Source: Candidatus Kaiserbacteria bacterium
GTDB lineage: Bacteria > Patescibacteriota > Minisyncoccia > Phycocordibacterales > JABMNX01
DNA: 64,000 bases
Direction of reading: 5' to 3'
Assembly (NCBI GenBank): GCA_016186705.1
Contig: JACPLB010000004.1
Coordinates: 12,381-76,380 of the forward strand
The notes below the pieces were generated by a model that made no database searches, had not been told where the DNA came from, and saw only the letters and a program-made list of their open reading frames with translations. A program made the position numbers and the translations under genes. Each line of letters starts with the position of its first letter. Position 1 is the stretch's first letter. Shown piece after piece: positions 35,883-38,216 of this stretch.

Positions 35883-38216
35883 TTATCGGACTTCAAACCC
35901 TTTGTTTTGATGAAGCGACGTAGTTACGCTCTCCATAATTTCATTTACTTCCTTGTCGGAAAGTGTCTTTTCACTGGATTGAAATACCAACTGAAACGCG
36001 TAAGAGACGCGCTTGTCTTTCTTGTATTCGTCAAAAAACGATATGCGTACGAGAAGATTCCCCGCATGCTCTTTTATGCGGCTTTCAAGTTCCTGTGCAT
36101 CCACTTCTTCAGGCGCCCATACGGCAATGTCCCGAAGGACAAACGGGTAGATCGAGAATGGGCGGTACGAGAAGCCTTCGTGCTCAAAAATGTCTTCATA
36201 AAACGTCGGTTCGGGAAGTGCGTCGAGCACTACGTCAAGATTACACTCACATACACCGCCTGACCATACGCCTCCTAAGACAATCCCGAGTTCTGATGAG
36301 AGAGCTTGTACGGCTTTTTCCGCATTTTCTTTTGCGCTCGAGCCGATACATAGAGCTGTATATTCTTTCAGGTGCTCCGTACTGCCCTTAAAAATCTTGC
36401 CGATTTCAAATAAGTTAACGTCGTTTACGCCGAAGAGCGGCAGATTTTTTTGATTGCGCGCAATACCCTCTTCCACTCCGTAGTGCAATCCATCGCGCAG
36501 AAATGATTTATCGCCGGCAAGCGGGTTTTCAATTTCTATCTGCCCAAAATTCCTCATTGAGTACGTATACACTTCTGTAAAGCCCCTGTCAGTAAGAAAG
36601 CGGCGAATTTTTTCTGCGTAATAGAAACTCTTGTTTATGTCCGGCTGTATGCTGTTTTGTTCCGGAATCAGAGCGGGAATATTTTGATACCCGTAGATTC
36701 TCCCGATTTCTTCAATAAGGTCTTCTTTAACACGCACGTCCAAACGCTCAAATGGAATCTTAACGACATAGCGTTTTTTGTTGTCGGTCATCCGGCGGTA
36801 ACCGATAATGTCTTTATATTGCTTTGAATCTGATATTTTCTCTTCAACGACCATCCCCTGCTCGCGAGCGGCGTGTATCATGTTCTCTTCGCCGATATAT
36901 AACGCACAGTGGTCGACTCCTTCGGGCACTGCGGTGCCTTTCATGTATCCCACTGTCTCGTATCGTACAGCTCCCGTTTTGCTATTAAAGAAAATGAGGT
37001 CTCCTGGCTGGATATCTGAAGCACCAACGGGCATCCCGTATGCATACTGGTCAATTGATACACTCGGTAGCGCAACGCCGCCCTCAACAAAAAGATAATT
37101 GGTAAATGAGGAACAGCTGAATTGTTTTCCGTTGTCATATCGAATTGCCCCAATCGGCGTATATGGTATGCCCTTCAGAGAGGGGGCGAGCGAAAGCACT
37201 TTTTCAATCGGAGAGACCTTTTCATAAACATATCCAAGAGAAGTGAGTGTCTTTTCAATTTCTTTTGCTGTGATTGACGCACCAAGGAGTTGATTTACTT
37301 CGCTAAGCGACATTCCGACTTTATACTGCATGGTCATCCGTTTCGGATACGCATCAACGTATCCCTCGACGTCCCCTCCCGCGATTTCAAGTATGAGATT
37401 TACCGCTTCGGTAATGCCGTAGTAGGCAAGCTCCGGCGCAAGCTCGTTTTCAAAACGTATTGACGCGTCGGTGCGAATTTCAAAATGGCGCGACGTTTTG
37501 CGGATGCTTGTCGGATTAAAGTTCGCCGACTCAATAATAATATCTTCCGTTTTTTCATCAATGTCGGCTGTAACACCTCCCTTTACCCCGGCGATGCCGA
37601 GAGGAAGACCGGAGTGTCCGTCAGCAATAAGGAGATGGTCGGGAGAGAGTGTGTGCTCTTCCCCGGAAAGCAGAGTTATCGTCTCTCCCTTCTTTGCGCT
37701 GCGGACAATAATATGCATTCCATTTTCCTCCGCGAGCTTCCGCGCGTCAAACGCGTGGAGGGGTTGACCAAGAGAAAACATAACATAATTAGTCGCATCA
37801 ACGACATTGTTGATGGATTTTTGACCAATACTTAGAAGTCTCTCTTGAAGCCATTGCGGAGATGGAGCAATGCGCGCACCGCGGATAACCCCAGCCATGT
37901 AGCGGCGGCACATGAGCGGGTTTTCAACGGAGACCGAGAGCGTGCGTGACAAAGGAAGCTGTTTTTCCTTTTCGCGCATCACATCTTGCTTAAGCGGCAT
38001 GTTTAAAAGTACGGAGAGTTCTCGCGCAACACCGAGATGCGACAGACAGTCGTGTGTTCGATTCGGCAGAATGTCTATATCAAAGATAGTATCATCTCCG
38101 ATCTTCTCTACATGCTCCACTTCAAAAGCATGGAACGTGAGCGTGTCCGCGACCATCTCGGGAGACGGGAGTTCTTTTTCAAAATACGATTGCAGCCAGC
38201 GATAACTTGCTTTCAT
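35883..38216 (-). CDS. pheT: Phenylalanyl-tRNA synthetase beta subunit carrying a ~150-aa NlpC/P60-like insertion in the B5 domain
   Basis: B3/4, B5 (…LGYVYEKV // [32 protein letters not shown]) and C-terminal domains align with PheT. Residues ~341-495 instead read ...[14 protein letters not shown]...GDLIFF...[15 protein letters not shown]..., matching NlpC/P60 Cys and His/His motifs. Confidence 0.9.
   Translation of the reverse strand: [777 protein letters not shown]

Follow-up and report, generated by a model that had tools for sequence, protein, structure and literature searches.

What is a peptidase-like domain doing inside an aminoacyl-tRNA synthetase (aaRS)? The question is raised by the pheT gene, which codes for the phenylalanyl-tRNA synthetase (PheRS) beta subunit, on a 64,000-nucleotide (nt) stretch of Candidatus Kaiserbacteria bacterium DNA (GenBank assembly GCA_016186705.1, contig JACPLB010000004.1, positions 12,381 to 76,380), referred to here as the window. 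An earlier reading made from the letters of this DNA and its open reading frames (ORFs), the sequence-only reading, had proposed that a complete NlpC/P60 domain with a Cys-His-His triad was nested in the B5 domain of PheT, and this was borne out by profile searches, structure prediction, and residue conservation. The pheT ORF was uninterrupted, and its product was identified as a bacterial PheRS beta subunit by a TIGR00472 score above the model cutoff, by the presence of the B3/B4, B5, catalytic-like module (CLM), and FDX-ACB domains, and by an adjoining pheS gene (Table 1). In Pfam scans of the whole protein, B5 was recovered as two stretches, the second of which covered residues 476-510 and profile positions 33-67 of 67, and between them lay a match to NLPC_P60 (PF00877) at residues 363-471 with 50.5 bits. 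The excised segment scanned alone gave 56.5 bits (E-value 3e-15, against a gathering score of 23), a match far beyond chance.

The limits of the insert were determined by alignment with Thermus thermophilus PheT (1B70/2IY5), in which query residues 41-331 aligned with T. thermophilus residues 152-435 and query residues 481-614 with residues 440-582. By this alignment, about 146 residues (335-480) take the place of about four residues of the turn that joins the two final beta-strands of B5, a winged helix-turn-helix, 'DNA-binding-like' domain (PMC3275996). The limits given by the sequence-only reading, 36732-37196, were essentially right, but they start 6 residues inside the insert and overrun its end by 15 residues, into B5's C-terminal half. 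Its description of PheT as otherwise collinear with bacterial PheT did not hold, since the B2 (EMAP/OB) domain, T. thermophilus residues 39-151, was missing and query residue 41 aligned with T. thermophilus residue 152. The GC content of the insert (0.47-0.50) was the same as that of its flanks, with no compositional break.

The best NCBIfam matches of the insert outside PheT models were all NlpC/P60 peptidoglycan hydrolases (RipB, p60/Iap, RipC, MepS, and EntFM), and a search of PDB sequences returned 7CFL (E-value 2.8e-11) and 3H41 (E-value 3.2e-8). A full-length AlphaFold2 model built with a 119-sequence alignment had a mean predicted local distance difference test (pLDDT) score of 94 and a predicted template modeling (pTM) score of 0.74, with pLDDT values of 89-98 in the insert; the insert modeled alone had a pLDDT of 93 and a pTM of 0.89. 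Foldseek comparison of the lone domain with the PDB returned NlpC/P60 enzymes only, with 7CFL at the top (TMt 0.85-0.87) and 3H41, 4HPE, 9UBF, MepS, CwlO, LytE, and RipB also present, and the insert within the full-length model was superimposed on 7CFL with a TMt of 0.87-0.89 and a root-mean-square deviation (rmsd) of 1.8-2.3 A. Across both models, 7CFL, 9UBF, and 3H41 were matched at TMt 0.85-0.89. The full-length model matched every solved bacterial PheRS beta subunit in the PDB (E-values of 1e-52 to 1e-42), none of which contained a P60-like insert. The predicted fold is of the papain-like alpha+beta type with the canonical, non-permuted residue order C368...H436...H448; membership in the permuted LRAT/YaeF-type group was ruled out by this order, and NCBIfam matches to permuted families were merely marginal. 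By profile, fold, and catalytic residues, the insert is a member of the NlpC/P60 (C40) family, and Cys368, His436, and His448 lie where the sequence-only reading had placed them.

Such an arrangement could in principle be produced by an assembly or binning chimera, or by a mobile insertion that is recent and confined to this contig. The sole identical database entry (P0001) was a 585-residue fragment on an 8-kb contig, and no evidence for a chimera was found. All of the 120 best database homologs, drawn from four archives (NCBI, JGI, ENA, and Logan assemblies), combined PF00877 with PheT domains at the same insertion point, and the names given by submitters included Parcubacteria, Kaiserbacteria, Campbellbacteria, Pacebacteria/Paceibacterota, and Patescibacteria. 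In species-representative genomes, in-frame PheT flanks surrounded the insert in 27 of 31 Patescibacteria-labeled loci, either on both sides or on one side where a contig end cuts the gene (L024 and L034); the remaining four loci were stand-alone forms, described below. These loci were recovered with an alignment-based scan of the genome contigs, a scan with a single sequence having given no matches, and a word-indexed homolog search with the insert alone gave one weak match (P0121), too few shared 5-mers being indexed. An exhaustive phmmer search with the insert against 1.84 billion cluster representatives yielded 56 matches with E-values of 1e-30 or below and 253 with E-values of 1e-10 or below, and most of the matches among those listed were PheT-sized, with the domain at residues ~335-500. 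Taken with the absence of a compositional break, the uninterrupted ORF, and the pLDDT of the full-length model, the architecture of the homologs and their in-frame flanks effectively refute a chimera or recent insertion, which is given a negligible probability.

Free and repeated NlpC/P60 domains were also encountered in these searches. In P0122 (1183 residues), which headed the phmmer matches and is unrelated to PheT, nine NlpC/P60 domains are arranged in tandem (707 bits in total); other multi-P60 repeat proteins among the matches were P0155, P0194, P0215, P0224, P0243, P0246, and P0257. In Faecousia and another Bacillota metagenome-assembled genome, a normal pheT was followed, ~1.5 kb downstream, by the gene for a secreted SH3b-SH3b-NlpC/P60 wall hydrolase (30-34% identity to the insert). 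This nearness was rejected as a functional link, because the product is a wall hydrolase with a signal peptide, another gene lies between the two, and unrelated genes follow; the synteny is probably coincidental.

Residue conservation was assessed in 119 aligned full-length PheT sequences, including that of the window (43-61% identity), and in 12 stand-alone B5::P60 proteins. Equivalent residues in Bacillus cereus YkfC (BcYkfC) were obtained from the PDB-sequence alignment, and their roles were taken from Xu et al. 2010 (PMC2954226). Y352, F366, C368, G380, P384, D389, D406, and H436 were invariant across the full-length set. The mean frequency of the most common residue was 0.66 in the insert, 0.65 in the editing domain, and 0.50 in the CLM; the insert is conserved like the editing domain and more than the CLM, and is under purifying selection. 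The end motif of the enlarged hairpin at residues 411-433 was also conserved (G427 in 114 and G433 in 117 of the full-length proteins, and T428 in every stand-alone protein). The hairpin, ~23 residues long in the window protein, exceeds 45 residues in some relatives, where it has an extra 'HxFTRVSDGxEV...' segment, and this wide variation in length suggests a lineage-specific elaboration on the leaving-group side of the active site.

Several residues of the S1 subsite were likewise retained. S369, the equivalent of Ser239, was kept in 115/119 sequences, and position 387, the equivalent of Ser257 and itself Ser in the window, was small (S/A/T) in 115/119. Position 367 (Asp237 equivalent) was Asp and position 385 (Arg255 equivalent) was Arg in 97 sequences each, and the two co-varied perfectly, with D/R in 97, S/S in 22 (including the window), and no mixed pairs; the stand-alone forms were divided into eight D/R and four S/S. 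The Asp-Arg hydrogen-bond pair has been described as wiring the active site (Xu et al.; PMC2954226). On the evidence of the alignment, the change from D/R to S/S is a compensatory replacement, as expected of a working rather than a decaying active site. Position 386, the equivalent of the defining Asp256 of YkfC, was Val in the window and I/M/V/L in 113/119 sequences, with Asp absent among the four commonest residues, and no SH3b domain was detected in PheT by Pfam. Membership in the YkfC subfamily was ruled out by the lack of the Asp256 equivalent and of SH3b, which carries the Tyr118 equivalent, and for the same reasons the insert should not require a free L-Ala N-terminus.

These counts bear on a rival proposal, in which the domain has no catalysis of its own and serves as a structural or regulatory module that would either offset the loss of B2 and of the PheS coiled coil in tRNA binding or tune PheRS as a muropeptide-binding sensor. 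The PheRS of the window is indeed stripped of two accessory modules: in addition to the absence of B2 from PheT, PheS is without its N-terminal coiled coil, which normally binds the tRNA elbow (PMC8136816), and the preceding gene stops 22 nt before the pheS start codon. Inactive P60 domains exist, as in the NCBIfam model for RipD. However, a triad and an oxyanion Tyr that are invariant or nearly so in the 119 full-length and 12 stand-alone proteins would be needless for a scaffold, and in the stand-alone forms the catalytic residues persist after the contacts to PheS have gone. Two homologs of ~900 residues (P0068 and P0095) retain B2 (PF01588) and yet carry the insert, so the loss of B2 and the gain of P60 are not strictly linked. 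An acidic pI is in addition a poor fit for general RNA binding, with the reservation that the pI of the window insert (~5.4) is similar to that of B3/B4 and its charge is uninformative on RNA binding. A purely structural or regulatory role is considered very unlikely.

The sequence-only reading had also suggested that the domain might replace a missing conventional editing context. In T. thermophilus, Tyr-tRNAPhe is anchored in B3/B4 by Asn250, His261, Gly315, and Glu334 (PMC3275996). The equivalent residues N143, H154, and G210 were invariant in all 119 sequences and E229 was present in 108, and the Pfam B3_4 match in the window was strong (Table 1). Replacement of missing editing was thereby ruled out: since B3/B4 is intact, the P60 domain is an addition to a complete PheRS and not a substitute for proofreading.

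The cis-acting or editing-related role put forward in the same reading is weakened by the intact B3/B4 domain and retains some weight in another form. In this form, which we regard as rather unlikely, the P60 domain would be a hydrolase or acyl-transferase that is tied to PheRS and has an aminoacyl ester or adenylate as its target, either as an extra proofreading or trans-editing site or as a site of Phe-thioester transfer, held by B5 near the catalytic domain of the alpha subunit and kept as a trans-acting factor where B3/B4 has been lost. Inserted hydrolytic editing domains have been acquired repeatedly by aaRSs, which counts for such a role. The location of the insert does as well: besides touching the aminoacylation domain directly, B5 is joined to it by way of a conserved Mg2+ ion (PMC8136816). 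The B5 Mg2+/alpha-contact residues were near-invariant in the full-length proteins (D493 in 119/119, D499 in 115/119, E502 in 114/119, and E503 in 117/119), and their contact role is also given in UniProt annotation. Against this, each of the 119 full-length proteins has a fully intact canonical editing site, leaving no gap to be filled, and the ordinary S1 residues of P60 enzymes are kept in a pocket that has not been remodeled for an aromatic aminoacyl group. The insert is mildly acidic (pI ~5.4). Pfam, NCBIfam, PDB-sequence, and Foldseek searches revealed no homology of the insert, in sequence or fold, to known editing or trans-editing families (B3/B4-CtdA, YbaK/INS, AlaX, DTD, and CP1), and only NlpC/P60 proteins were returned.

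Further evidence was provided by genomes in which the domain stands alone. At four loci, L008, L012 ('Zambryskibacteria'), L013, and L020 ('Minisyncoccia'), the full-length insert was matched with 35-44% identity in the absence of PheT flanks, in ORFs of 204-247 residues that span the first B5 strand to the last B5 helix. NLPC_P60 was detected by Pfam in the stand-alone proteins of all four loci, and the C-terminal half of B5 exceeded the threshold in P0147 (34.3 vs 28.6 bits). Beside each stand-alone gene was a gene for a protein of 382-391 residues consisting of a PheS class-II core fused to FDX-ACB, which is the mitochondrial-type PheRS architecture. This protein scored just under the cutoffs of TIGR00469 (pheS_mito; 234-238 vs 258) and NF051887 ('SrmL'; 226-251 vs 300). 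To our knowledge, single-chain PheRS occurs in organelles only, and no relevant literature on a bacterial monomeric PheRS was found. Synteny with the window was preserved on both sides of the stand-alone loci, with rpsB/tsf and GT2 homologs upstream and gyrB downstream. The same arrangement was found at two more metagenomic loci (L082 and the P0214 locus), so that the stand-alone gene adjoined the single-chain PheRS gene in 6/6 loci, lying 2 nt downstream of it in L020. The single-chain enzyme was 28-32% identical to the window PheS, compared with 59-73% among orthologs, and its FDX-ACB domain gave no tblastn match to the C-terminus of the window PheT. On these comparisons, the single-chain PheRS of these Paceibacteria-type genomes looks like a displacement of pheS-pheT rather than a simple in situ fusion. 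The genomes with stand-alone forms probably have no full-length pheT elsewhere.

In the stand-alone proteins, C368, H436, Y352, S369, D389, D406, and T428 were kept in 12/12 and H448 in 11/12, and the B5 Mg2+/alpha-contact residues had decayed (D499 in 1/12, E502 in 2/12, and E503 in 4/12). Because these forms keep the peptidase residues and lose the PheS contacts, selection follows the peptidase chemistry and not the PheRS interface. The decay of the residues that tie B5 to PheS also speaks against a role at the aminoacyl group, as does the low identity of the neighboring PheS-like protein to the window PheS, which makes a co-evolved interface unlikely. On the other side of the balance, B5::P60 is the sole piece of PheT kept after loss of the B3/B4-bearing protein, beside a new single-chain PheRS gene in every locus, and residues of the B5 shell are still conserved in the small forms (Y298 and G301 in 12/12 and E306 in 11/12). 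In its strongest version, the aminoacyl-directed proposal would make the P60 domain a third active site of PheRS, a new kind of cysteine enzyme directed at aminoacyl-tRNA or adenylate that survives in trans beside an editing-less single-chain PheRS; we consider this clearly unlikely. Such an enzyme would deacylate a non-cognate product beyond the reach of B3/B4 (e.g., D-aminoacyl or N-blocked) or take up Phe as a thioester and pass it on to a different acceptor.

A small gene (156-185 codons) was observed between B5::P60 and gyrB at two of the stand-alone loci (L020 5582-6139(+) and L082 1560-2030(+)). The L082 product matched Peptidase_C39_2, another papain-like fold, and the L020 product, which has no obvious signal peptide, was assigned to the same family by apparent sequence relatedness. 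At the corresponding position before gyrB, the window has 186 nt of non-coding DNA.

We favor, at a probability of about 0.45, a reading in which the insert works in the cytoplasm as an autonomous cysteine amidase whose pocket is of the gamma-D-Glu type and whose own chemistry is independent of the PheRS assembly. An NlpC/P60 amidase domain would have been inserted once, into the wing-hairpin turn of B5, in the ancestor of a large Parcubacteria/Paceibacteria-type lineage, and is predicted to have been kept catalytically competent since then. The host PheRS would have remained normal, with editing at a B3/B4 site of its own, and the peptidase would be an extra cytoplasmic active site selected for its own chemistry. 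Cys368, activated by His436/His448 and with Tyr352 as the oxyanion/S1 residue, would attack a gamma-D-glutamyl-type amide, probably in a small, soluble peptide derived from peptidoglycan or similar to such peptides. The process would resemble cytoplasmic muropeptide processing by YkfC, without the need for a free L-Ala N-terminus. Of the three functional guesses of the sequence-only reading, a moonlighting hydrolase of amides or cell-wall peptides is the best fit to the active-site signature and to the stand-alone forms. A cytoplasmic location is suggested by the lack of a signal peptide on PheT or the small forms, as judged by sequence inspection. With a median pI of 5.9, the embedded domains are acidic to neutral, in contrast to free P60 domains from other bacteria, whose median was 9.1 and of which 37/49 lay above pI 8. 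The values of the embedded domains fit a substrate dissolved in the cytoplasm better than the anionic wall.

Several points weigh against an autonomous cytoplasmic amidase. In the window PheT, the equivalents of both Asp237 and Arg255 are Ser and that of Trp228, a hydrophobic position in the signature, is Pro (P354; Y/L/F in most relatives), so that the gamma-D-Glu S1 signature, which is largely present across the family and is not exclusive to gamma-D-Glu bonds, is incomplete here. The signature is common to P60 enzymes that cut other bonds (e.g., MepS) and does not fix the substrate. A cytoplasmic enzyme accepting N-substituted stem peptides could also attack cell-wall precursors and would need to be controlled. 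Finally, a function unrelated to PheRS leaves unexplained both the location within PheT and the preserved B5 shell of the stand-alone forms. The remaining weight falls on a substrate class outside those named here.

The insert was compared with four groups of known systems. It resembles the peptidoglycan DL-endopeptidases (Clostridioides difficile Acd24020 (7CFL), Bacillus subtilis CwlO/LytE, and Escherichia coli MepS) in fold (TMt 0.85-0.89, rmsd ~2 A, 30% identity to 7CFL), in its Cys-His-His triad and oxyanion Tyr, and in the GDLxF and HxGxYxG motifs. Unlike the insert, which has no signal peptide, is acidic, is nested in a synthetase domain, and has the enlarged hairpin 411-433, these endopeptidases are secreted or bound to the wall, are usually basic, and carry SH3b, LysM, or coiled-coil modules for targeting. 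With the YkfC-type gamma-D-Glu-L-diamino-acid peptidases (B. cereus 3H41, B. subtilis, and Chlamydia trachomatis), the catalytic and S1 residues align one-to-one, but the defining Asp256 and the SH3b domain with the Tyr118 equivalent are lacking. The cytoplasmic YkfC enzymes of Bacillus (PMC2954226) and Chlamydia (PMC9928106) provide a precedent for an intracellular P60 enzyme that processes peptidoglycan-derived peptides. The editing domains of aaRSs (PheRS B3/B4, class I CP1, ProRS INS, and ThrRS N2) are also hydrolases embedded in a synthetase chain, and the stand-alone editing proteins YbaK, AlaX, and CtdA parallel the stand-alone B5::P60 proteins; however, their folds and chemistry are unrelated, none is papain-like with such a Cys nucleophile, and a genuine B3/B4 is present here in addition. 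Compared with the beta subunit of canonical (alpha-beta)2 PheRS (T. thermophilus 1PYS/2IY5, E. coli 3PCO, and Mycobacterium tuberculosis 7K98), which the model matched with Foldseek E-values of 1e-52 to 1e-45, the protein shares B1, B3/B4, B5, CLM, B8, the editing residues, and the Mg2+ ligands, and differs by the absence of B2 and by a 146-residue P60 insert between T. thermophilus residues 435 and 440.

No description of a peptidase-fold domain in PheRS was found in full-text literature searches, in agreement with the sequence-only reading, and no paper describing NlpC/P60 in PheRS, pheT, or tRNA synthetases was found in a full-text search that did not cover all journals and in which the slash-written name may escape phrase matching. 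Database pipelines label some of the homologs 'C40 family peptidase' or 'phenylalanine--tRNA ligase beta subunit-related protein', so the architecture is already visible in databases. Novelty lies in the nesting itself, in its conservation throughout the lineage, and in the stand-alone B5::P60 derived from it.

The coordinates of the features are given in Table 1. No second P60 domain or second pheT copy was present in the window. In the same window, the EF-Ts gene (42194-42667(-)) encodes a strongly truncated protein of only 157 residues, which consists of a UBA-like N-terminal part and the beginning of the EF_TS core (positions 6-75 of the 204 in the profile), and adjoins rpsB (42689-43450) and a release factor gene (43495-44466).

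Table 1. Features of the pheT locus and related loci. Coordinates without a locus identifier are positions in the window; residue numbers are those of the window PheT; Tth, T. thermophilus PheT.
Feature	Coordinates	Strand	Basis and remarks
pheT coding sequence, PheRS beta subunit, 777 residues + stop	35883..38216	(-)	TIGR00472 463.2 bits, cutoff 402.65
B1 N-terminal domain, residues 1-40	38097..38216	(-)	Residues 1-39 aligned to Tth 1-38; B2 absent after B1
B3/B4 editing domain, residues 103-280, intact; N143, H154, G210, E229	37377..37910	(-)	Pfam B3_4 199.7 bits; Tth alignment; residue roles PMC3275996
B5 N-terminal half, residues 295-334 (...LGYVYEKV)	37215..37334	(-)	Pfam, Tth alignment; predicted strand E330-334 directly before insert
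NlpC/P60 (MEROPS C40) domain, residues 335-480, in B5 hairpin turn	36777..37214	(-)	Pfam, PDB sequence match 7CFL, AlphaFold2 + Foldseek
Tyr352 codon, predicted oxyanion/S1 Tyr, equivalent to BcYkfC Tyr226	37161..37163	(-)	119/119 full-length, 12/12 stand-alone; role PMC2954226
S367, equivalent to Asp of Asp237-Arg255 pair	37116-37118	(-)	
Cys368 codon, predicted nucleophile, equivalent to BcYkfC Cys238	37113..37115	(-)	119/119 full-length, 12/12 stand-alone
S385, equivalent to Arg of Asp237-Arg255 pair	37062-37064	(-)	
Enlarged family-specific hairpin, residues 411-433, between GDLIFF strand and catalytic His	36918..36986	(-)	Length varies; end motif G427-T428...G433 conserved
His436 codon, predicted catalytic, equivalent to BcYkfC His291	36909..36911	(-)	119/119 full-length, 12/12 stand-alone
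His448 codon, predicted third triad residue, equivalent to BcYkfC His303	36873..36875	(-)	115/119 full-length; 11/12 stand-alone, one Gln
B5 C-terminal half, residues 481-512, with Mg2+/alpha-subunit contact residues D493, D499, E502, E503	36681..36776	(-)	Pfam; conservation; PMC8136816
CLM B6/B7, residues 513-634 matched	36315..36680	(-)	Pfam
B8 / FDX-ACB anticodon-binding domain, residues 688-777	35886..36155	(-)	Pfam 79 bits
pheS, 252 residues, catalytic core only, ends 7 nt upstream of pheT	38223..38981	(-)	Matches TIGR00468 from profile position 65
gyrB, conserved downstream neighbor, synteny anchor	33603..35696	(-)	ORF + synteny comparison
Stand-alone B5::P60, 194-247 residues	L008 4902-5516; L012 4824-5489; L013 4842-5531; L020 4842-5585, ATG at about 4911; L082 846-1505	(+) in all	
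Further stand-alone B5::P60 proteins			P0131, P0147, P0151, P0190, P0199, P0213, P0214, P0240
Single-chain PheRS-like enzyme	L008 3640-4815(-); L012 3636-4784(-); L013 3633-4802(-); L020 3761-4909(+)	as given	Also P0214 locus
Bacillota pheT / free P60 loci	L033 pheT 1162-3540, P60 4380-5360		Also L036, L053, L049

Synthetase architectures are among the best charted in biology; new catalytic domains seldom turn up in them, and those that did have mostly brought new quality-control chemistry to light. In the present case, an essential enzyme of translation contains a putative thiol amidase from a family of cell-wall hydrolases, and it does so throughout a major branch of the host-dependent, ultra-small bacteria of the candidate phyla radiation (CPR), and lineages that have discarded all of PheT except B5::P60 provide evolution's own dissection of the two. 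The single-chain bacterial PheRS that accompanies the stand-alone form deserves study for its own sake. Should an aminoacyl species prove to be the substrate, the domain would represent a new editing or transfer fold; should it be a muropeptide, the fusion to an essential gene may mark the salvage of cell-wall peptides as indispensable for these epibionts.

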